A stretch of DNA of 64,000 nucleotides from Candidatus Saccharimonadota bacterium (GCA_046350755.1 JAXLZV010000001.1:270855-334854); one strand, 5' to 3'; counted from the first letter of the stretch, positions 11,264-38,753 are shown. Program-made: numbers and translations. The notes: generated by a model not told the origin, from the letters alone.

Positions 11264-11980
11264 TTAGGCGGCGAGCGTGAGATGCGGTCCCGACTCGAGC
11301 TGGTCGAGAACACCATCGACATATCTGTGCAGCGCTCGATGCCAGATGACCCCCAGGTGCTCAGCCCAACCATCGACTAGCTCGATGCCATGGCTGCGCG
11401 TCAGGCCAGCCCGAATGAGCAAGCGGTGGAGAAAGGCTGGTGCCAGTACGACGTTGTGGGCGCCGGACACCGTCGAGGCGAACCACGGCACCACCAGCTC
11501 GTCCATCACCGAGAAAAGTGAGTAGACGTTATCGGCCGTGAACGACTGATCCTCACGCAGCTCATGCAGATAGCGCGAGTGAGCAGCCATCGTACGAATC
11601 GCCGGCAACCAACTCAGAATCTGACCGAGATTTGCCAGCCGGGTGCCATGAAATGGTGCACCGAAGGCAATCACCGCCACGACCAGCCCAGAGAAATACT
11701 TGCCGTGATGCAGGGCATGCAAGGCACCCTGGCTGTGGCCGACCAAGATATAGCGCCGTTCTGGATTCGGCAGAAACACCTTAGTAGCCAGCTCGTCCGA
11801 AGCATCCTCCAGATGGCCGAGACCAAGCTTGGGAATTGCTAAGATGACAACGTCATAGCCGCGAGCCTCAAAGACTCGTGCCAGCGGCCGGTACACGCAA
11901 GCCGCTAGCTGAGGGCAGAATGTACCCATGTAGATCACAACCGTGGTGTTTTCGAGTGGAGTAGCTGCTGACTCGGACAC
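11264..11980 (-). CDS. Alpha/beta-hydrolase-fold esterase/lipase (GHSQG nucleophile elbow)
   Basis: 238 aa. VGHSQGALHA is GxSxG; the organisation resembles class-2 lipase or PGAP1-like hydrolases. Confidence 0.55.
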   Translation of the reverse strand: MSESAATPLENTTVVIYMGTFCPQLAACVYRPLARVFEARGYDVVILAIPKLGLGHLEDASDELATKVFLPNPERRYILVGHSQGALHALHHGKYFSGLVVAVIAFGAPFHGTRLANLGQILSWLPAIRTMAAHSRYLHELREDQSFTADNVYSLFSVMDELVVPWFASTVSGAHNVVLAPAFLHRLLIRAGLTRSHGIELVDGWAEHLGVIWHRALHRYVDGVLDQLESGPHLTLAA

Positions 11981-12148
11981 GATTCCCCCTTTCCGAGTCT
12001 CGGGTTTGGATTTTGAAGTACGCGCTTGGGTTACACGAAAGCGTTACGGCCATCCTACGCCGGCCCGAACGGAAATACTAGTGCGGTCTAGCTCTCCCAG
12101 ATTGAATCTGGCATAATAAGCCACAGCTTCGACTCTGGAGGAGAAATC

Positions 12149-12988
12149 ATGAGGCTTCGTACCTTCATACGTCAGGCCGCGCGTAGTCGCGTTCGGCCTG
12201 GTACCGCCGTACTTATCGGCCTTGGTGTGTCACAAGTCGCCAATCTCGCCACCACCATCTACTTGCATCGCCAGTTGGCTCATCGTGCCCTCGAGCTCGA
12301 TCCACGGTTGGCGCGCACCTGCGAGCTGATCGTTCGCTGTTCGACCGGCATGGTCCCGCTCGAATGGGCGGCCATCCATCAGCAGCACCACGCCCATACG
12401 GATGAGCCGGGTGATCCCCACTCACCACTCATCGAGGGACTCTATGAGGTGCAAGCCCATAACGTTCGTCTCTATAAGGAAGCCAAGGACACTCCGGATG
12501 TCCAACGACGGCTTCAAGTTTTGACCAAGAACAATCCCGGCCAGCTCGACTGGTTGAGTGGTGGTCGCGGGCTGGCCATCGGTATCGGCACCGCAATCGT
12601 TGTCTTTGGGCCAATTCCAGGCCTGATCATCTCACTGGTCCATTGGCCGGTTTACATCGGCCAGAGTGCCAGCGTGAATGGCGTCGGACACGCCGGCATG
12701 GACGCTGTCACGATGAAGCAGCAGAATCTCCGGTCACGCGTTCTGTGGCGGATAGCTCAGCGCTTCGGTTATCGCAACTTCGACACGCCGGACACGAGCT
12801 GGAACCTGCCGCCCCTCGCCTTTGCCACAGCTGGGGAGGGTTACCATAACAACCACCATGCACAGCCCGAATCACCGACTTTCGCCCTCCAGCCGGGTGA
12901 GCTTGACCTGGGTTGGGTAGTGATCAAGGCGCTGCAGCGACGTCAGCTGGTGACAATTCGCGAGTCGGAGCTCACGAGTCCCAGCTAA
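12149..12988 (+). CDS. Membrane fatty-acid (acyl-CoA/acyl-lipid) desaturase family protein
   Basis: Three His boxes: HRQLAH (HxxxxH), HQQHHAHTD (HxxHH) and HNNHHAQP (HxxHH), with hydrophobic segments between them. This is the classic di-iron membrane desaturase arrangement. Confidence 0.65.
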   Translation: MRLRTFIRQAARSRVRPGTAVLIGLGVSQVANLATTIYLHRQLAHRALELDPRLARTCELIVRCSTGMVPLEWAAIHQQHHAHTDEPGDPHSPLIEGLYEVQAHNVRLYKEAKDTPDVQRRLQVLTKNNPGQLDWLSGGRGLAIGIGTAIVVFGPIPGLIISLVHWPVYIGQSASVNGVGHAGMDAVTMKQQNLRSRVLWRIAQRFGYRNFDTPDTSWNLPPLAFATAGEGYHNNHHAQPESPTFALQPGELDLGWVVIKALQRRQLVTIRESELTSPS

Positions 12989-26272: not shown

Positions 26273-27886
26273 TTACTTACACACACCATACCAAGTACAG
26301 GTGGTACTTATGGTGAGTTGGATAGCATCCCCAGCATTGCGCCCATCAGCAGTCAGTGGCTGAATGTAGATTTTCTGCTGACCCGTCGCGAGGTGCCAGA
26401 TAGTCGTGCTGGTAGTGGTGGTTGTACGATCAAAGCCGCTATTGACACGGACCCGGTATTTAACTGCCCCCTCAACTGGCTGCCAGCTTACCAGTGAGCG
26501 ATTAATAAAGAGAAATGAGCCTACTACCGAGCTACTAATTGCTGCCTTCTGGCTACCAGCAGTTCGACGCGATTTAAGATCAACACTATCGTTGAACGAA
26601 GGGGTAGCAGTCGGAGTGGCCGATGGCGATGCTTGAGCAGCCTCACCTGTCCTGCTCGAACCGCTCGTGCTAGGCTGAGCAGCCTTCGGATTGGTGGGTG
26701 TAACGGTGCGACTAGTTGGCGTACTATTGGCGGCCGCACTGGTGCCATTTGTGCCGGGTCCGGTGGGGGCGGGTGCAATTGGAACTGGTGCCACAGGCGG
26801 CACAGTTGATGCTGTATTGCCCCAACTGTAGGCTTTTGTGCCATCAGTATTCCATTGTGGCTGAATCATCTTAATTCGATCCCATGGTATATGCGTCATG
26901 CTCGAATAATCGCCAGCTGGTAATCCCGCCCGCGTATAAACATTGCGGCCAGTCCGGTCAAATTCCATGCCAAAGCCAAAGGTGAGCGAGGTGTCGTTGG
27001 CGTAAGCACCATATTTCTGCAGAGCTTTCGCCACCATCTTCTCAAAAGCCGTAATGCCTGGGAGTGCATCGACATTGACCGCAGGATCAAGCTGTATGCG
27101 CGAACCTATCGGCATGCAGGTCGATTGATTTGTAGTTACTCCATCACTATAAAGTGCCGGGTAGAAAGGAACTCCCTGGCAAGTGGTACCAGTGGCGAAG
27201 GTCAGCGCGTGATCAATCACGCCAGCTTCCACCTCATAGGTACGGATCATCCCTCCGGCTAGTCCAGCTACGTTTGTTCCGCCACCAACACCATTACCGT
27301 CCAAGCTCGCAATACCGGCTGATGCCGGGCAGTAATTCGCATTCACAAAATTCACAACCCACGAGCAATCCTTCCATATCCAATAATCATAAACTTTGCG
27401 GGTACTATGATCGATGATGGTGACATGACCATCACTCCCCTGTTGACCGTACACACCATAAGGGATCGGGACGAGTGTATTGGTGATCTCATCGCAGGTG
27501 TAGACATAGCAAAAGACCTTAACTTTCGGCGAGCTTCCATCCACATCAAATACTGGCACTGACCAAGTTAGTTGGGAAAGATTGGCGGGCGGACCTGCGG
27601 CCTGTATGCGAGTCTGTCCATCAGCGCGATATTGCACATCGGCAGGAATTGCCTGATTGAGTGGTGAATCTGCCGAAAACAACCGACCTGCTTGGGCGCC
27701 AGTTGCAGGATTCCACGTATAGGTTGCCGAACCGGCCCGGGAAGTAAGCACAAGTGAACCGACTAGCAATGCCAACACTATGCATATCAACGCCGTAAGT
27801 GCACGAAAGCGCGGAATTGGAATTTTTTTACGACTGGCTGGGACTGGCTGGGACTTTTTTGGTAAAGTTTGGCGACTTGCCCTCAT
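26273..27886 (-). CDS. Large membrane-anchored secreted protein of unknown function (Cys-rich central domain, Pro/Thr linker, C-terminal FN3-like domain)
   Basis: 537 aa; N-terminal TM anchor; PVAPVPIAPAPTGPG linker; C-terminal W.PVEGAVKYRV pattern typical of fibronectin-III-like domains. Confidence 0.4.
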   Translation of the reverse strand: MRASRQTLPKKSQPVPASRKKIPIPRFRALTALICIVLALLVGSLVLTSRAGSATYTWNPATGAQAGRLFSADSPLNQAIPADVQYRADGQTRIQAAGPPANLSQLTWSVPVFDVDGSSPKVKVFCYVYTCDEITNTLVPIPYGVYGQQGSDGHVTIIDHSTRKVYDYWIWKDCSWVVNFVNANYCPASAGIASLDGNGVGGGTNVAGLAGGMIRTYEVEAGVIDHALTFATGTTCQGVPFYPALYSDGVTTNQSTCMPIGSRIQLDPAVNVDALPGITAFEKMVAKALQKYGAYANDTSLTFGFGMEFDRTGRNVYTRAGLPAGDYSSMTHIPWDRIKMIQPQWNTDGTKAYSWGNTASTVPPVAPVPIAPAPTGPGTNGTSAAANSTPTSRTVTPTNPKAAQPSTSGSSRTGEAAQASPSATPTATPSFNDSVDLKSRRTAGSQKAAISSSVVGSFLFINRSLVSWQPVEGAVKYRVRVNSGFDRTTTTTSTTIWHLATGQQKIYIQPLTADGRNAGDAIQLTISTTCTWYGVCK

Positions 27887-30908: not shown

Positions 30909-31289
30909 TCATCGCTGCGACGCGGACTTTTTCGGGCCTGGAGCTTTGGGTAAACACAGCGCCGCGATACCGAGTAGACTGCGCGGAGCGATAACGCTGA
31001 CAAGAATCGCTATCACCAGCCAGACCGCCAGCGGAATCCTCAGCATCGCTAACATCGCAATCATAACTATCCAAGCGATCACTATCGCACCCCAGACAGC
31101 CGAGCGGATATCACGAGCCTGACGACTATGTGGCTTCTGGAGCCTGTCGAGCTCAAAGAAGTTCAGATACGGTCTCGTCAGCGCCCGAAAGGCTCGCCGT
31201 TCGTAGCCGGACTTCTCTGCAAGCACACCAATCCCGGCCACAAATTGCGGCCCGAAGCATGATAGATAGTTTCTGAGGCGAATGTTCAT
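30909..31289 (-). CDS. DUF454/YbaN-family small inner-membrane protein
   Basis: 126 aa with two TM helices; the basic-then-hydrophobic arrangement fits YbaN-like proteins. Confidence 0.4.
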   Translation of the reverse strand: MNIRLRNYLSCFGPQFVAGIGVLAEKSGYERRAFRALTRPYLNFFELDRLQKPHSRQARDIRSAVWGAIVIAWIVMIAMLAMLRIPLAVWLVIAILVSVIAPRSLLGIAALCLPKAPGPKKSASQR

Positions 31290-31585: not shown

Positions 31586-32740
31586 CTATCTATTACGAAC
31601 TTTCCATCGAAATAGCCATACCATAATTAAGAAAGAGCCCATAGCAAGTAATCCTCTTAGAAAGATAAAACCGCCACTACTCCCAACCCGGGGCAATTGC
31701 CCAGAAGCCGGAATAACCGATGGGCCTGCTGTGGGGTTGCCGGAAGAAACAGGTGGCGAAACGATTCCGCTCAGTCGACCAATTGCATTCCCATCACCTT
31801 CGACAAACCAAATATTATCATCTAGTCCAGCTACAATACCATTCGGCAAACTAGCATTTGTAGGGATCGAGTACTCAGTAATCACGCCTGATGTCGTTAT
31901 GCGTGCGACGTTATTACCATTTGACTGTGTAAACCATAAGTTATCATCAGGACCTAACGCGATATAGAAAGATGCGCTATTCGCGGTCGGGATGGGGAAC
32001 TCAGTCACTACTCCGCTCGTGGTAATCCGACCAATACTGTTACTCGAAGTTTCGGTAAACCACAAGTTGCCATCAGAGCCAGCTGTAATACCTGCAGGGT
32101 TCGCACCAGGAGTAGAGATCGGAAACTCTGTGACAACACCGCTAGTTGTGATGCGACCAATGTTATTGCCAAGATATTCCGAAAACCATAAATTCCCATC
32201 AGGACCTGAGGTAATAACGGATGGTATCCCGCCTGAAGTAGGAATAGGATATTCGGTTACAACTCCGGCCGTGGTAATGCGACCGATGTTTCCAGCCTGC
32301 TCGGTAAACCACAGATTCCCGTCAGGGCCGACTACCAACCCAACTGGAGTGCTATTTGGAGTTAAGACAGGAAACTCTGTGACAACACCGCTAGTTGTGA
32401 TGCGACCAATGTTATTGCCATTCCCTTCCGTAAACCACAAATTACCATCGGGGCCAGTCACTATAGTTATTGGATAGCTGCTATTAGTGGGTAGCGAGAA
32501 TTCAGTCATCAACCCTGAAGATGTGACACGCCCTATCTGATTGCCATTACTTTCCGTAAACCACAAATTACCATCGGGGCCAGTCGTTATAATACCTAGC
32601 CCACAAGATGGTGTGGGAACAGAAAACTCCGAGAAGGTCGGTGCAGCTAGTGTGTGAACTGGTGAAATCACCGTAATAATGGCAATCACGAAACAAATTG
32701 AGATGACTTTAGTCGTACTCAGAGAAAAGTGAGAAAGCAT
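31586..32740 (-). CDS. Secreted Vgb (virginiamycin B lyase)-like beta-propeller repeat protein with a C-terminal sorting-signal-like tail
   Basis: About 7 repeats of GPDGNLWFTE..NNIGRITTSGVVTEFP, matching the Vgb blade motif WFTE..NKIGRIT..G.ITEY.LP. N-terminal signal peptide; C-terminus LPRVG plus hydrophobic stretch plus RWKVRNR. Confidence 0.65.
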   Translation of the reverse strand: MLSHFSLSTTKVISICFVIAIITVISPVHTLAAPTFSEFSVPTPSCGLGIITTGPDGNLWFTESNGNQIGRVTSSGLMTEFSLPTNSSYPITIVTGPDGNLWFTEGNGNNIGRITTSGVVTEFPVLTPNSTPVGLVVGPDGNLWFTEQAGNIGRITTAGVVTEYPIPTSGGIPSVITSGPDGNLWFSEYLGNNIGRITTSGVVTEFPISTPGANPAGITAGSDGNLWFTETSSNSIGRITTSGVVTEFPIPTANSASFYIALGPDDNLWFTQSNGNNVARITTSGVITEYSIPTNASLPNGIVAGLDDNIWFVEGDGNAIGRLSGIVSPPVSSGNPTAGPSVIPASGQLPRVGSSGGFIFLRGLLAMGSFLIMVWLFRWKVRNR

Positions 32741-32819
32741 AACAGAATTGTCTCACTGGACAATCAGGAATGCAAAAACCGGTATCCCATTTACTTACGG
32801 ATTGGACGTAGTGTGACTA

Positions 32820-34367
32820 CTATCGAACACCCGGCGTTGGGAAAGTTTCCGTACGCCTTGTAGCCTGTCGTGAGGTGCGATTGCGGATGATGCCGGCCGC
32901 TGGCACGACGGTAAATGCGAGTGCGGCCGCCAAGAACAGCCAGAGGTTCTCTCCGGTATTCGCGAGGCCGGTGCCCGTCGAACTAGCGGTGGTCGCCAGC
33001 CCAACTGGATCGACGATGATGCCGTTCTCCGCACCATCATCATCCAGGGATCCGCCATCAGTGATGGAGTACGTGAGCTTAAGGGCATGATGGCCGTTCA
33101 GAGTCGTCTCGGTGATAACAGCGCCAGGAATGTCTGAGAATGTCTGAACACTCGAGTGATACTTCCGGGCTGTCACTTGGTTCGGGAGCAGATCAGTCTC
33201 AAAGGTGAGATTGACCACCTGCGTCGAGCCCGTGGGCGCAGTCATGGTGAAGTTCACCAGGCCAAGTGGATACATCTGACCAGTATCTGTCTTGGGTAGC
33301 GAGCTAGCTGCCGTGGCACTCAGAGCTGTAATACTCGTACCATCCCCTGTCTGCAGCTGGATGTCTGGCGAGCCACCTGGCTGATTCACCGTCTTGGTGG
33401 TGATGGGAAGTTCGAGGCGGCCGATGTTGTTAGTTCCCGCTTCAGCGAACCAGATATTGTCTTGGCCGGCGGCAACAACAAAGGTCGAGCTACCGGGGCT
33501 TGGTATCGAGTATTCGGTAATGACTCCAGCTGCGTTAATACGACCTACATTATTGCCAATAATTTCCGCGAACCACATATTACCATCAATTCCGGTAGTT
33601 ATAAATCCTGGAGCAGAGCTCGATGTAGGCACAGGATACTCAGTGATTGTGCCGGCTGGTGTTATACGTCCAATATTATTGCCAGTATTCTCTGTGAACC
33701 ATAGATTGCCGTCAGAGCCACTCGTTATACCAGCTGGGAAACTAGTGAGTGTTGGCGTTGGGAATTCTGTAATACTGCCTGCAGGAGTAATGCGACCAAT
33801 ATTGCTTCCTTCCGCTTCTGTGAACCATAGATTGCCGTCAGAGCCAGCGATAATCCCGAATGGACTGCTCAACTGTGTTGGTATCGGGAATTCGGTGATT
33901 ACGCCAGAAGTTGTAATCCGACCAATATTGTTTCCCGCTGTTTCTGTGAACCAGAGGTTTCCATCGGGTCCTATGGTGATACCAAGTGGCTCACTGTTAG
34001 GGGTTAATATCGAGAATTCTGTAATATCACCACTTGGGGTGATGCGACCAACATTATTGCCTCCCGCCTCTGTGAACCAGAGGTTTCCATCGGGTCCTAT
34101 GGTGATAAATCTCGATAATGAGCCTGGGGTCGGTATTGCATACTCTGTAATATCACCACTTGGGGTGATGCGACCAACATTGTTGCCTCCCGCCTCTGTG
34201 AACCACGTATTACCGTCGGGTCCAGCTACAATACCTGTTGGCATTGCGTTCGGCGTAGATATCGGATACTCCGTAATATCATTCGGCGCAGCTAGCGCCT
34301 TACATGGGACTACTACTGCTAGTGCAGCTACGGTAAGTCCAGTTACTATTAGTCGCCAAGTACGCAC
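32820..34367 (-). CDS. Secreted Vgb-like beta-propeller repeat protein (8+ blades) with an extra C-terminal domain and a LAxTG-type sortase signal
   Basis: Same blade motif, repeated. C-terminal LANTG, then a hydrophobic segment, then a basic tail (cell-wall sorting signal of the class-E LAxTG type). Confidence 0.65.
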   Translation of the reverse strand: MRTWRLIVTGLTVAALAVVVPCKALAAPNDITEYPISTPNAMPTGIVAGPDGNTWFTEAGGNNVGRITPSGDITEYAIPTPGSLSRFITIGPDGNLWFTEAGGNNVGRITPSGDITEFSILTPNSEPLGITIGPDGNLWFTETAGNNIGRITTSGVITEFPIPTQLSSPFGIIAGSDGNLWFTEAEGSNIGRITPAGSITEFPTPTLTSFPAGITSGSDGNLWFTENTGNNIGRITPAGTITEYPVPTSSSAPGFITTGIDGNMWFAEIIGNNVGRINAAGVITEYSIPSPGSSTFVVAAGQDNIWFAEAGTNNIGRLELPITTKTVNQPGGSPDIQLQTGDGTSITALSATAASSLPKTDTGQMYPLGLVNFTMTAPTGSTQVVNLTFETDLLPNQVTARKYHSSVQTFSDIPGAVITETTLNGHHALKLTYSITDGGSLDDDGAENGIIVDPVGLATTASSTGTGLANTGENLWLFLAAALAFTVVPAAGIIRNRTSRQATRRTETFPTPGVR

Positions 34368-34506
34368 TACTGTTGAAGACGCTTAAACATAACCAGATTC
34401 TCTCATAGCTGCAAAGGAGTGACAATTGTAGCCAAGCAGTTGCCTCATTGATGTGACCGTTCTATGCACATTGAACGGTATTGACAACGGACTCACAAAC
34501 AGCGAA

Positions 34507-34723: not shown

Positions 34724-35146
34724 TTGGTGGACCTTGTGAGTCAGTATTCGCGGTCACGGTTGCATCTGGAAAGGCGAACCATAACCGGATTCAATACGAA
34801 CGTGAGATGGATCGGGGCGAAGGGATCGTCTGTCGAGGGTGGTTCTGCGGTACACACCCTCTCTACATCTCGCCATCGGCACTTGTCGTCAAATGAGGCC
34901 GCAGAGCTTGTAGCTCGATACCGAAGTGGAGAGAAGATCAAGGATCTAGCTGCCAGCTACAAGATTCACCGCTCCACGGTGATGGCGCACCTCCGCAGAG
35001 CTGGGGAGCTGAAGCACAAGGGCTGGACCGACGAAACAACGGCCGAAGCCAGGAAGCTCAGAGCTGCCGGCCTAACGATCGTGGAGGTCGCAGCCAGACT
35101 TGGACGACCACCGTCGACGGTCCAGAGACGGCTGAACCAGAATTAA
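34724..35146 (+). CDS. Helix-turn-helix DNA-binding protein (two HTH-like segments; resembles N-terminal DNA-binding modules of transposases/resolvases); copy 1
   Basis: 140 aa: ...LVARYRSGEKIKDLAASYKIHRSTVMAHLRRAG...LTIVEVAARLGRPPSTVQRRL. High GC. Paralogue of 35883..36296. Confidence 0.5.
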   Translation: MVDLVSQYSRSRLHLERRTITGFNTNVRWIGAKGSSVEGGSAVHTLSTSRHRHLSSNEAAELVARYRSGEKIKDLAASYKIHRSTVMAHLRRAGELKHKGWTDETTAEARKLRAAGLTIVEVAARLGRPPSTVQRRLNQN

Positions 35147-35208: not shown

Positions 35209-35625
35209 TCAGATCTTTAGCACGCGCTTGACTTTGGCGAGCTCAGCGCCGGTTCGCTTCCGCTGCCGTGAGCGCTTATCAGCCTCGCGCTTGACGGCGG
35301 GTTGCTGCATGAGAGCTTCCTGGCAGAACGCCACGAACAGGTCCTGGGCCAACATGACCCAACCTGAGGCTTCGCGGATCATGCCTTCACTCTCCATGGA
35401 CAGCTCGGCCCAGTTCGGAAAGGCACGGATCATCTCGACCAGCATGACTCTGGCTTCGTCGATCGTGTCGATCTTCGCTCGGGCGGCGTAGTAGGCGGCG
35501 TCTTCGAGGTTCAGCGGCCAGCGCTCCCCGTTCTCCTCAACGAGCGTGTAACTCATGAATACACGCTTCGCCTCCTCCGCCAAGCCATTGAACAGAACGG
35601 ACGGGGTGTCTGTCATCGTGGGCAT
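35209..35625 (-). CDS. Hypothetical protein (138 aa) between the two HTH paralogues
   Basis: Protein-like composition with a C-terminal basic tail (KREADKRSRQRKRTGAELAKVKR); no motif recognised. Confidence 0.35.
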   Translation of the reverse strand: MPTMTDTPSVLFNGLAEEAKRVFMSYTLVEENGERWPLNLEDAAYYAARAKIDTIDEARVMLVEMIRAFPNWAELSMESEGMIREASGWVMLAQDLFVAFCQEALMQQPAVKREADKRSRQRKRTGAELAKVKRVLKI

Positions 35626-35882: not shown

Positions 35883-36296
35883 GTGGACGTACTGAGACAG
35901 TATTCGCGGTTAGCTGCCTATCTCGAAAACCGAACCATAACCGGTTTTCATCCGAACACGAGATGGGTTGGCGCCAAGGGATCGTCCGTCGAGGCCGTCC
36001 AGCCGTCACTCTCTACATCTCGCCATCGGCGCCTGTCGTCAAGTGAAGTGGCCGAGCTCGTAGCTCGATATAGAGGCGGCGAGAAGATCAAAGACCTGGC
36101 TGTCAGCTACAAGATCCACCGCTCCACCGTGATGGCACACCTCCGCAAGGCCGGAGAGCTGAAGCACAAGGGGTGGACCGACGAAACCACGGCCGAGGCA
36201 CGATGGCTCCGGGATGCCGGGCTGACGATCGCGGAGATTGCGGCCAGGCTCGGCCGACCGCCTTCGACGGTGCAGAGGCGGCTGAGTCGGGGTTAA
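35883..36296 (+). CDS. Helix-turn-helix DNA-binding protein; copy 2 (paralogue of 34724..35146)
   Basis: 137 aa, about 80% identical to copy 1 by hand alignment. Confidence 0.5.
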   Translation: MDVLRQYSRLAAYLENRTITGFHPNTRWVGAKGSSVEAVQPSLSTSRHRRLSSSEVAELVARYRGGEKIKDLAVSYKIHRSTVMAHLRKAGELKHKGWTDETTAEARWLRDAGLTIAEIAARLGRPPSTVQRRLSRG

Positions 36297-36712
36297 TGCA
36301 TTGAATGGTCCATCATCATCGATGAATCGTAAGTTCCGTAGCCCCAATCTGAATACCAAGCTTCCATACGATCAATCTCAGATGTTTGAGCAGCAATAAT
36401 GTCACGACCCAGCGCCTTCACTTCCTCATGCTTGGCACGATCGTTGATCAATTCAGCCATCTCTATCGCCCCCTCGTGATGAGGAATCATCTGACGGATG
36501 AACTCCTTGTCAAACTCATCCCCCTCTTTATCGCGCAACATCGCAACCATGTGATCCATCGAACCTTCGCTATACATCATCTGAGACTTATCGATCGACT
36601 GCGGTTCAGACTTTGCAGTTGCCTGCATCACACCAAACGTCACGCTTGCCCCAACAATGAGACCTACTATTCCAAACAAGATCTGCTCTTTATTCATAAT
36701 TACTCCCTCCAT
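36293..36712 (-). CDS. DUF305-family protein (metal/copper-resistance associated), membrane-anchored
   Basis: MIPHHEGAIEMAE is the DUF305 HHxGAI signature; N-terminal TM; downstream of the copper ATPase. Confidence 0.6.
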   Translation of the reverse strand: MEGVIMNKEQILFGIVGLIVGASVTFGVMQATAKSEPQSIDKSQMMYSEGSMDHMVAMLRDKEGDEFDKEFIRQMIPHHEGAIEMAELINDRAKHEEVKALGRDIIAAQTSEIDRMEAWYSDWGYGTYDSSMMMDHSMH

Positions 36713-36722
36713 CTACATTTTG

Positions 36723-38753
36723 CTACGAACTATGATCCTCGGGCCGCAGCTGCACCCTGCGCAGCAATTGCGCATTCAGTGCGACGACCACGGTGGAAGC
36801 ACTCATCAAGATTGCTCCCGCCGCGGGCGACAACGTGAGGCCAGCAAATGCGAACACGCCCGCAGCCAACGGGATTGCCATAACGTTGTACCCGGCTCCC
36901 CATACAAGGTTCTGCACCATTTTGTTGTAGCTTGCCCGCGAGAGCTTGATCACTCCTACAACTCCACGAGGATCGGATGATGCGAGCACCACACCGGCAG
37001 ACTCGATCGCAACATCGGTGCCTGCACCGATAGCGAGTCCGACATCTGCGCGAGCAAGAGCCGGTGCGTCGTTCACACCATCTCCCACCATGGCGACTTT
37101 TCGGCCACGCCCCATAAGGTCGGACACCGCCCGGTCTTTGTCATCGGGCAGCACCTCAGCAAACACTTCGTCGATCTCGAGCTGTTTGGCGACCGACTCC
37201 GCTACTTGCTTAGCGTCGCCAGTAATCATGGCGGAGCGGATACCCAGGCTACGCAGAGTATTGATCGCGCTTTCCGACTCGGGACGAATTGCATCCTCAA
37301 GTGCAAACGCACCGACTATCTGCTTGCCACGGATCACATGCAGGACGGCTGCTCCACGAGCGCGCCAGGCATCTGTATGCTTTGCGAGTCCTGCAGGTTC
37401 AACCAGCTCCCGTTCATTGAGTAAGGCTGGTCCACCAACAGCCACCTGTGCTCCATCGACTGTCGCCTCTACCCCACGTCCGGTCAGACTGCGAACTCGC
37501 GTAGCTTTTCCTCGTGCATCCATCTCCTTAGCTTTCGAAACGATTGCTCGAGCCAGTGGATGCTCACTTTCTGCCTCTACGGCTGAGGCGATCTTGAGAA
37601 GCTGCTTCTCGCCAATTCCATGAGTTGCTAGATTGGTAACTCGGTGCTCACCCAGGGTGAGAGTGCCAGTCTTATCAAACAAAACTGTATCGACTGTCCT
37701 CATTCGCTCCAGTGCGAGCCGACTCTTCACCAAGATGCCCGCCCGTGCCGACACTGCGGTTGAAACAGCAATAGTCAAAGGAATCGCCAAGCCAAGCGCA
37801 TGCGGGCAGGCAATCACAAGAACGGTGACCGTGCGCTCAATTGCCGCGTCAACGTTGCCAAGCGCAGTCCATACTACAAAAGTAACCAGGCCAGATATCA
37901 CAGCAACATAGAAGAGCATCGCGGCAAACCTGTCCGCTAGTACCTGTGCTTTGGACTGCGACTGCTGGGCTTCTTGCACGAGACGCTGGATGCCAGCCAG
38001 TGCCGTGTCATCACCAACTGCGGAGACTCGGACTCGGATAGACGAATCTGTAGAGACAGTGCCGGCAACAACACGATCGCCAATGTGCTTGGAGACCGGT
38101 CTCGACTCACCCGTTATCATCGACTCATCCAGAGCTGCATCACCTTCAGTAATCTCGCCATCCGCTGGCACACGAGCCCCCGCCCGGACGAGTACAACAT
38201 CACCGACTATTAGCTGCGCAATACGCACTTTCGTGGGCTCACCATCCTTCCCGATTCGCTCGGCTTCATCTGGCAGCAGCTCCGCAAGAGCCGATAGTGC
38301 CCCTTGCGCCTGCCCAATCGCACGCATCTCTAGCCAATGGCCAAGAAGCATGATCGTTACGAGCGTCGCCAACTCAAACCACAGGTCGACATCGATCAGA
38401 CCCAGAGTGGTTGCAAGCGAAGCCGTGAAAGCAACCAGTAGCCCCATTGAGATGAGCAACATCATTCCCGGCTGACGGGACTTGATCTCATGCCACCCAC
38501 CCTTTAAGAAGACGGGGCCGCCGTAGAGAAATACAGCTGTACCAAAAAGCGGCGCAATCCATTCATGACCCGGAACCATCGGGGCTGTGTAGCCAAGAAG
38601 TTCCTGAAGCATATGACTATAAGCCACGGCGGGCATCGTAAGCAGGAGACAAATCCAGAACTTGCGCCGAAAGACAGCAGGGTCATGTCCTGCATGCTTA
38701 TCGTGGCTGTGTTCAGCTCCGTCGTGATGATCATGGGAATGGTGATTCATCAT
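36723..38753 (-). CDS. copB: Heavy-metal (copper) translocating P1B-type ATPase, CPH-motif CopB-like, with a His-rich N-terminus
   Basis: N-terminus MMNHHSHDHHDGAEHSHDKHAGHD; TM6 CPH motif (ACPHALGLAIP); phosphorylation site DKTGTLT; hinge GDGVNDAPAL; 8 TM helices. Confidence 0.85.
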   Translation of the reverse strand: MMNHHSHDHHDGAEHSHDKHAGHDPAVFRRKFWICLLLTMPAVAYSHMLQELLGYTAPMVPGHEWIAPLFGTAVFLYGGPVFLKGGWHEIKSRQPGMMLLISMGLLVAFTASLATTLGLIDVDLWFELATLVTIMLLGHWLEMRAIGQAQGALSALAELLPDEAERIGKDGEPTKVRIAQLIVGDVVLVRAGARVPADGEITEGDAALDESMITGESRPVSKHIGDRVVAGTVSTDSSIRVRVSAVGDDTALAGIQRLVQEAQQSQSKAQVLADRFAAMLFYVAVISGLVTFVVWTALGNVDAAIERTVTVLVIACPHALGLAIPLTIAVSTAVSARAGILVKSRLALERMRTVDTVLFDKTGTLTLGEHRVTNLATHGIGEKQLLKIASAVEAESEHPLARAIVSKAKEMDARGKATRVRSLTGRGVEATVDGAQVAVGGPALLNERELVEPAGLAKHTDAWRARGAAVLHVIRGKQIVGAFALEDAIRPESESAINTLRSLGIRSAMITGDAKQVAESVAKQLEIDEVFAEVLPDDKDRAVSDLMGRGRKVAMVGDGVNDAPALARADVGLAIGAGTDVAIESAGVVLASSDPRGVVGVIKLSRASYNKMVQNLVWGAGYNVMAIPLAAGVFAFAGLTLSPAAGAILMSASTVVVALNAQLLRRVQLRPEDHSS

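Follow-up and report, generated by a model that had tools for sequence, protein, structure and literature searches.

Two adjacent paralogous genes, here called A and B, lie in a 64,000-nucleotide stretch of DNA from a Candidatus Saccharimonadota bacterium (the window; GCA_046350755.1, JAXLZV010000001.1:270855-334854). Their products are probably surface-displayed, non-catalytic, seven-bladed propellers of the Vgb (streptogramin lyase) fold, most likely serving as ligand-binding or adhesive heads on the Saccharibacteria envelope. Both proteins combine export signals and the Vgb fold with the loss of the Vgb active site, blade variability is concentrated at two positions, and the anchor of A is conserved throughout its family. 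By analogy, the concentration of variability at blade positions 12 and 14 and an internal symmetry above that of Vgb point to a binding role. A preliminary description of this DNA had placed two neighbouring, exported Vgb-like propellers with C-terminal anchoring signals here, and the open reading frames (ORFs), Pfam matches and tails agree with it. The genes are separated by 79 nt and their products are 56% identical over signal peptide and propeller; no further propeller paralogue was found in the window.

32820-34367, minus strand: gene A, 515 aa, GTG start; exported Vgb-fold propeller, choice-of-anchor U domain and LANTG signal
31586-32740, minus strand: gene B, 384 aa, ATG start; exported Vgb-fold propeller, Pro/Ser/Gly-rich linker and a C-terminus of LPRVG, hydrophobic segment and basic residues
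33408-34286, minus strand: seven-bladed beta-propeller of A, aa 28-320, without His or Lys
31766-32644, minus strand: seven-bladed propeller of B, aa 33-325, without His or Lys

Each propeller is built of exactly seven blades of 42 residues with the consensus +TE+++PT..S.P..I+.G+DGNLWFTE..GNNIGRIT.+G+; the Vgb-type repeat motif named in the preliminary description thus stands, whereas its count of 7-8 repeats narrows to seven in both proteins. The two propellers match Pfam PF24684 (Vgb_lyase) with E = 3e-107 and 9e-109 (358.1 and 363.1 bits; gathering threshold 50), and their closest PDB matches are the Staphylococcus aureus Vgb chains 2z2n/2z2p (E = 3e-86 for A and 3e-72 for B). Weak Pfam matches to the SGL/gluconolactonase and strictosidine-synthase-like families were also obtained. 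An AlphaFold2 model of A revealed a closed seven-bladed propeller at aa 30-320 (predicted local distance difference test, pLDDT, >90) followed by a low-confidence tail. A Foldseek search with this model ranked Vgb 2z2o first (template modelling score 0.95, root-mean-square deviation 1.4 Å, 43% identity) and also matched 1l0q, an archaeal S-layer protein with a YVTN propeller and a PKD domain. Blade-to-blade identity is 0.60-0.62 in A and B versus 0.42 in Vgb. Over the 14 blades of A and B, the most variable positions are 12 and 14 (3.4 and 3.2 bits), occupied mostly by small or hydrophobic residues. The mature propellers contain 10 Asp and 17 Glu (A) or 10 Asp and 13 Glu (B), and 7-8 Arg each alongside zero Lys and zero His; the absence of Lys may be a by-product of the repeat motif or a consequence of selection, for instance to escape modification or proteases that target Lys.

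The active site of Vgb, which we take to comprise Tyr18, His228, Glu268 and His270, was reportedly described with the Vgb structure by Korczynska et al. in 2007. This residue list is corroborated by the PDB title of 2z2p, a quinupristin complex that differs from 2z2n by H270A and is described as 'catalytically inactive H270A', by the retention of RPH and EPH (blades 6 and 7) in both VgbA and VgbB, and by the binding of the Vgb substrate and Mg2+ through conserved polar side chains of blades 6-7 (CylK paper, PMC8916777). The close similarity of the blades shifts HMMER local alignments of A with Vgb by two blades; a global MAFFT alignment to S. aureus VgbA and an alignment-free count of histidines were used instead. 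In the global alignment, Tyr18 corresponds to T44 in A and G49 in B, His228 to G254 and F258, Glu268 to a gap in A and L298 in B, and His270 to T295 and N300. All four active-site residues map to blade positions 12 and 14. Glu284 of Vgb is uninformative, lying beside the generic WF.E glutamate that is present in every blade. The residue count, for which no alignment is needed, found no histidine in either mature propeller. Moreover, the NCBIfam models NF000022 for Vgb(A) and NF000096 for Vgb(B) gave 325.8 and 325.0 bits for A, and 377.8 and 308.7 bits for B, against a cut-off of 600, and the PH…E.H signature was found in none of 144 retrieved homologues and none of 93 propeller ORFs in related loci. 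Judged from their sequences, neither A nor B is a Vgb-type streptogramin lyase.

Both proteins carry predicted signal peptides of the Sec type, in line with the preliminary description.

34290-34367, minus strand: signal peptide of A, aa 1-26, ending …VVVPCKALA/AP, from sequence, hydropathy and alignment to B; helix 4-17 in the model
32645-32740, minus strand: signal peptide of B, aa 1-32, ending …ISPVHTLA/AP, from sequence and hydropathy

The N-terminus of A reads MRTWRLIVTGLTVAALAVVVPCKALA and that of B ends in VISICFVIAIITVISPVHTLA, with the predicted cut before AP in each case. The hydrophobic cores have Kyte-Doolittle values of 2.7 (A) and 3.0 (B), and each is followed by an AxA-type site (ALA/AP or TLA/AP). 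Lipoprotein anchoring was considered and rejected: both signal peptides contain a Cys without a lipobox. In most public gene calls, including the NCBI record, A starts at Met42 (474 aa), a call that leaves out residues 1-41 (34245-34367), which comprise the signal peptide and the opening strand of the propeller. Three observations favour the GTG start: the N-terminus of A that it adds aligns with the signal peptide and first strand of B, the public call of one A variant (P0144) begins MRTWRL, and strand 31-35 closes blade 7 in the AlphaFold2 model. The Met42 call is likely a systematic mis-call at a GTG start.

Behind its propeller, A continues into a putative stalk and a C-terminus that reads LANTG-EN-LWLFLAAALAFTVVPAAGII-RNRTSRQATRRTETFPTPGVR.

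32988-33362, minus strand: beta-sandwich 'stalk' of A, aa 336-460; strands in the model, pLDDT 53-84
32952-32966, minus strand: LANTG pentapeptide of A, aa 468-472, an LAxTG-type sorting motif
32886-32945, minus strand: hydrophobic segment of A, aa 475-494, 20 residues, LWLFLAAALAFTVVPAAGII
32823-32885, minus strand: basic tail of A, aa 495-515, 21 aa, RNRTSRQATRRTETFPTPGVR, 6 Arg

The NCBIfam model NF041766 (choice-of-anchor U) matches A at aa 363-458 with 61.6 bits (cut-off 32), ending ten residues before LANTG; the 'choice-of-anchor' name refers to surface proteins with alternative C-terminal anchors. A search with the C-terminal 198 residues of A returned 20 homologues, which have in common the module YPLGLVNF…ITDGG.LDDDG..NG.I.DPVGLA followed by LAxTG or xPxTG. 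All 20 carry one of these motifs with a hydrophobic segment and a basic tail, joined by differing linkers: LANTG in 10, LADTG in 2, LAETG, LAQTG and LAPTG in 1 each, and APNTG, VPNTG, TPDTG or SPKTG in the rest. Since the module follows varied heads (Vgb-type propellers, the NHL repeats of P0122 and P0129, the other N-termini of P0125 and P0140), stalk and anchor form a portable cassette.

Sortase genes were found near several related substrates. The closest full-length homologue (P0003, 52% identity) ends in APNTG, a hydrophobic segment and a basic tail and has a Pfam Sortase gene ~5 kb away, and the SPKTG-tailed homologue P0129 has a sortase gene ~4 kb away. In the cultured actinobacterium Arthrobacter sp. 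SW1, a VPNTG-tailed propeller gene (L011:9848-11362) is followed directly by a class F-like sortase gene (11346-12245), whose start it overlaps, and the strain is a tractable system for the sortase anchoring of Vgb-fold propellers. The Saccharibacteria relative L070 has VPATG with a hydrophobic segment and a basic tail. Tails of the xPxTG type occur in P0003, P0067, L011 and L070. A sequence pattern search for sortases over 86 loci gave 29 matches, all off-frame, and missed the L011 sortase; phmmer was used instead. LAxTG is experimentally established as the signal of class E sortases (PMC5148588), and a sortase family is carried by more than half of the genomes of the Candidate Phyla Radiation (CPR; PMC6744442). 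The LANTG of A thus looks like a real, conserved LAxTG-type sorting signal, as had been proposed, with the motif kept in all 20 module homologues and sortase genes near related substrates. The label 'class E' given to it is not supported: sortases adjoining related xPxTG substrates score best as class F-like (107 and 100 bits, versus 47 and 29 bits for the class E model NF033747, all below the cut-offs), and the window holds no sortase. The conservation of LAxTG/xPxTG tails suggests that sortase sorting with non-canonical motifs reaches CPR bacteria.

The C-terminus of B is of a different make, LPRVG-SSGG-FIFLRGLLAMGSFLIMVWLF-RWKVRNR, and no choice-of-anchor domain was found in B in the NCBIfam search. 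The layout that had been described for both tails, LANTG or LPRVG followed by a hydrophobic segment and basic residues, is what the two sequences read.

31697-31765, minus strand: Pro/Ser/Gly-rich linker of B, aa 326-348, a candidate wall-spanning spacer, from sequence
31682-31696, minus strand: LPRVG pentapeptide of B, aa 349-353, codons TTG CCC CGG GTT GGG
31589-31669, minus strand: hydrophobic segment of B, aa 358-377 (one Arg), and basic tail RWKVRNR, aa 378-384, from hydropathy and sequence

Together these parts suggest how the pair may work. The streptogramin-lyase active site would have been lost from the propellers or never present in them. In A, the propeller would be the head, the choice-of-anchor U beta-sandwich the stalk, and LANTG with the hydrophobic segment and Arg-rich tail the anchor; a sortase encoded elsewhere in the genome would cut A between Thr and Gly of LANTG, after which A would be linked covalently to peptidoglycan. 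In B, the C-terminal hydrophobic segment, preceded by the Pro/Ser/Gly-rich spacer, would keep the protein at the surface, either as a membrane anchor or through LPRVG as an atypical signal. The diversified top-face loops would bind a partner, possibly on a host bacterium or an environmental polymer.

The explanation put forward in the preliminary description, in which A and B are anchored to the wall, act as streptogramin-B-type depsipeptide lyases and so inactivate cyclic depsipeptides extracellularly, appears very improbable. It can draw on the strong family and fold similarity to Vgb, on the frequent association of Saccharibacteria with Actinobacteria, which make such compounds, and on 'vgb' homologues having been counted as antibiotic-resistance-like (PMC8651080). 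However, every defining active-site residue is replaced, the propellers have zero His although Vgb needs His270 and its H270A mutant is inactive, the NCBIfam scores reach about half the curated cut-offs, and the corresponding loop positions are hypervariable, with mostly hydrophobic residues. The preliminary description had itself named missing catalytic residues as contrary to this idea. With these residues replaced in the alignment to VgbA and mature propellers devoid of His, the enzymatic half of the idea falls, and at the level of sequence the canonical lyase mechanism may be taken as already refuted. Its rationale of Actinobacteria and host-made depsipeptides falls as well, the source being a metagenome-assembled genome (MAG) of Candidatus Saccharibacteria, a CPR member, and not an actinobacterium.

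Surface enzymes with another chemistry on the Vgb scaffold, such as metal-dependent hydrolases, lyases or alkyl-transferases that act on polymers of the host envelope, are an unlikely alternative to binding heads. The fold supports several chemistries (CylK paper, PMC8916777), CylK and BrtB alkylating with the same propeller fold, and the propellers of A and B are rich in Asp and Glu and weakly match the SGL/gluconolactonase and strictosidine-synthase-like families. Nevertheless, their Asp, Glu and Arg belong to a blade-invariant structural motif repeated seven times (GPDGN, WFTE, GRIT) and not to an asymmetric active site, an internal symmetry of 0.60-0.62 is typical of binding propellers, and no partner enzyme genes lie nearby; the active site of CylK, moreover, needs an extra N-terminal Ca-binding domain (PMC8916777) that is absent from A and B. 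We consider it quite unlikely that the pair are structural envelope components, forming an S-layer-like or wall-associated lattice, instead of specific binders. Many homologues do carry S-layer homology (SLH) domains, two of them being named 'S-layer homology domain-containing protein', the model of A matches the S-layer protein 1l0q, and two tandem paralogues could co-assemble; but A and B have neither SLH nor any known lattice-forming domain, and single-copy anchors are typical of individually displayed proteins.

Several points weigh against anchored binding heads as we propose them. We know of no ligand for any extracellular member of the family, and binding or adhesion rests on architecture and analogy; a non-Vgb enzymatic activity through Asp, Glu or Arg may exist. 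Neither a motif search nor phmmer --max, with SrtA and a CPR sortase as queries, found a sortase within the window, and of 164 matches to the sortase of locus L089, in a search that depends on shared words, none lies on the 643,864-bp contig of A. The models TIGR01167 and PF00746 did not match the isolated tails of A and B even at E <= 10; they perhaps do not cover the LAxTG/xPxTG variant, because the tails of the homologues P0003 and P0067 likewise go without a match. The basic tail of A is unusually long at 21 aa. In B, Val stands at the position of the scissile Thr, its codon GTT being two changes from any Thr codon, and an Arg lies inside the hydrophobic segment. To our knowledge, every characterised sortase signal has Thr at the scissile site. 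An exhaustive HMMER search of 1.84 billion representatives with the 66-aa tail of B found no related tail, the sole match being to the low-complexity linker part.

For B there is thus an even chance that it is a type I membrane protein held by a C-terminal transmembrane helix and not a sortase substrate, with LPRVG decayed or coincidental. The Val codon, the Arg in the hydrophobic segment, the missing match to anchor hidden Markov models, the missing choice-of-anchor domain and a tail without homologues all favour this. Against it, L-P-x-x-G stands between a Pro-rich spacer and a hydrophobic segment with basic tail, as is canonical for sorting signals, the chance of such a layout in a 10-residue window is <1% by a rough estimate, and the paralogue A has a conserved signal. 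A plain membrane anchor and an atypical sortase signal are accordingly about equally likely in B.

A more far-reaching version of the binding-head reading, which we regard as doubtful, is that Saccharibacteria possess a family of sortase-anchored dead Vgb-fold propellers whose hypervariable loops act as host-recognition adhesins in episymbiosis, with blades and loops varying by strain. If true, a resistance-enzyme scaffold would have been repurposed as a surface receptor, and LAxTG-type sorting would operate in CPR bacteria.

Some variation among strains is visible in public data. Two variants of A (P0142 at L004:5089-6387, and P0144) are each short of exactly one 42-aa blade, in slightly different registers, and their one-blade deletions coincide with a tandem DNA repeat.

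33943-34281, unstranded: 126-bp tandem DNA repeat, one blade per unit, in the first blades of A, units 78-84% identical

This repeat is likely the substrate from which the shorter variants arose; they could be real recombination products (six-bladed alleles) or assembly collapses. A third variant (P0143) keeps LANTG; of the seven residues by which it differs from A, several lie in the tail and the variable loops. Identical copies of B were found on 17 contigs from aquatic metagenomes and in two MAGs, with unchanged neighbours.

The propeller family as a whole is very large, with 7,988 of 8,000 scored candidates at E <= 1e-10. In a scan of GTDB genomes, 580 of 599 pattern-matching stretches encoded a relative, spread over Acidobacteriota, Actinomycetota, Nitrospirota, Melainabacteria, Chloroflexota, Patescibacteria and others. 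The same propeller occurs fused to SLH, TIG, CARDB, DUF11 and FN3 domains or with xPxTG tails. From this spread and these fusions it follows that exported and anchored Vgb-fold propellers are common and the cytoplasmic lyase is the exception. The earlier notion of a lineage-specific surface system is not borne out, given more than 7,988 family members in many phyla and with many kinds of anchor. Homologues from Nitrospirota and Thermodesulfovibrio (L013:9818-11053, L044:9947-11077 and L072:9944-11065) have tails of the form 'VVPT[MIL]SEWGMI…RRQ' that resemble the IPTL-CTERM sorting signal, a Gram-negative-type anchor thus being joined to the same propeller head.

Comparison with characterized systems places the pair among known architectures. 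Vgb itself (S. aureus VgbA, 2Z2N/2Z2O/2Z2P; Staphylococcus cohnii VgbB, 2QC5) shares the seven blades, the 42-residue motif and PF24684 with A and B. Nonetheless, it is a protein of ~299 aa without signal peptide or anchor, whose blades 1, 6 and 7 hold Tyr18, His228, Glu268 and His270. A and B, by contrast, have export signals and anchors, retain none of these residues and no His, have more symmetric blades and score well below the curated Vgb cut-offs. Like other NF041766 proteins, A has the choice-of-anchor U domain directly before the sorting signal, the heads being different; B is without the domain. We know of no function for the choice-of-anchor U domain. The LANTG, hydrophobic segment and basic tail of A have the LAxTG form that SrtE1/SrtE2 (class E) cleave and anchor in Streptomyces chaplins (PMC5148588). 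In contrast to the class E systems of Actinobacteria, A comes from a CPR bacterium, its window is without a sortase, and the sortases of its relatives are nearer to class F, with xPxTG substrates. The sensor domain of Mycobacterium tuberculosis PknD (1RWI), matched in sequence and fold, is likewise an extracytoplasmic symmetric propeller without a catalytic site, but it has six blades (NHL-like) and is joined to a kinase. In Saccharibacteria TM7x, the pilin PilX2 has a seven-bladed propeller and contributes to host binding (PMC11623550); it is a pilus component with RCC1-type blades, unlike the free-standing, wall- or membrane-anchored Vgb-type propellers of A and B. A is already labelled as a choice-of-anchor U protein at NCBI (MFO0955233.1, 'choice-of-anchor U domain-containing protein [Candidatus Saccharibacteria bacterium]') and relatives as 'streptogramin lyase' at JGI, and the pair exemplifies a known architecture in well-documented form, with no new principle.

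For host recognition and attachment by ultrasmall episymbionts, surface propellers that join diversified loops to a design of head, stalk and anchor are reasonable candidates alongside type IV pili. The locus also bears on resistance surveys. Counts of antibiotic-resistance-like genes in CPR and Saccharibacteria genomes have included Vgb-family matches (PMC8651080), and an unusual abundance of 'vgb' homologues has been reported for Saccharibacteria. As A and B illustrate, a match of this kind can be an exported and anchored propeller that lacks the lyase active site. In resistome surveys, His228, Glu268 and His270 as well as signal peptides should for this reason be checked before 'vgb' is called.

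The gene order around the pair is CsoR, Cu-ATPase, DUF305, 138-aa ORF, A, B, 126-aa ORF, ddl, murF and C39-like peptidase. A functional link at operon level to ddl-murF or to CsoR/CopA/DUF305 was considered and set aside, as nothing beyond adjacency speaks for it. One promoter-like sequence precedes A.

34397-34425, minus strand: weak sigma-70-like promoter match, TTGTCA-17-GAGAAT with TG, ~30 nt 5' of the GTG of A; consensus match only

It is among seven sigma-70-like matches found, versus 5.3 expected, a difference that is not significant. Just 3' of B, a 126-aa hydrophobic protein (30909-31289, minus strand) and a 537-aa conserved protein (26273-27886, minus strand), both without a Pfam match, flank the genes for ddl, murF and the C39-like peptidase. 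A copper-homeostasis cluster with a CsoR-like repressor, a P-type ATPase (676 aa) and a DUF305 protein adjoins the propeller genes on the other side (36293-38753 and upstream; compare L001:3710-6448). Long ORFs run antisense to the propeller genes at 31992-32477 (plus strand, 161 aa) and 33394-34386 (plus strand, 330 aa); because their translations are themselves 42-residue repeats, they are shadow ORFs arising from the repeat structure and not genes. Finally, two paralogous ORFs of ~140 aa lie 5' of gene A at 34724-35146 and 35883-36296 (both plus strand), with TTG and GTG starts, and encode two helix-turn-helix motifs each (HTH_23, resolvase HTH_7, sigma-70 r4; E ~1e-10). Between them sits the 138-aa ORF (35209-35625, minus strand), which has no Pfam match and is the only one given by public gene calls at this locus; the helix-turn-helix ORFs may encode a pair of regulators or be left over from a mobile element.

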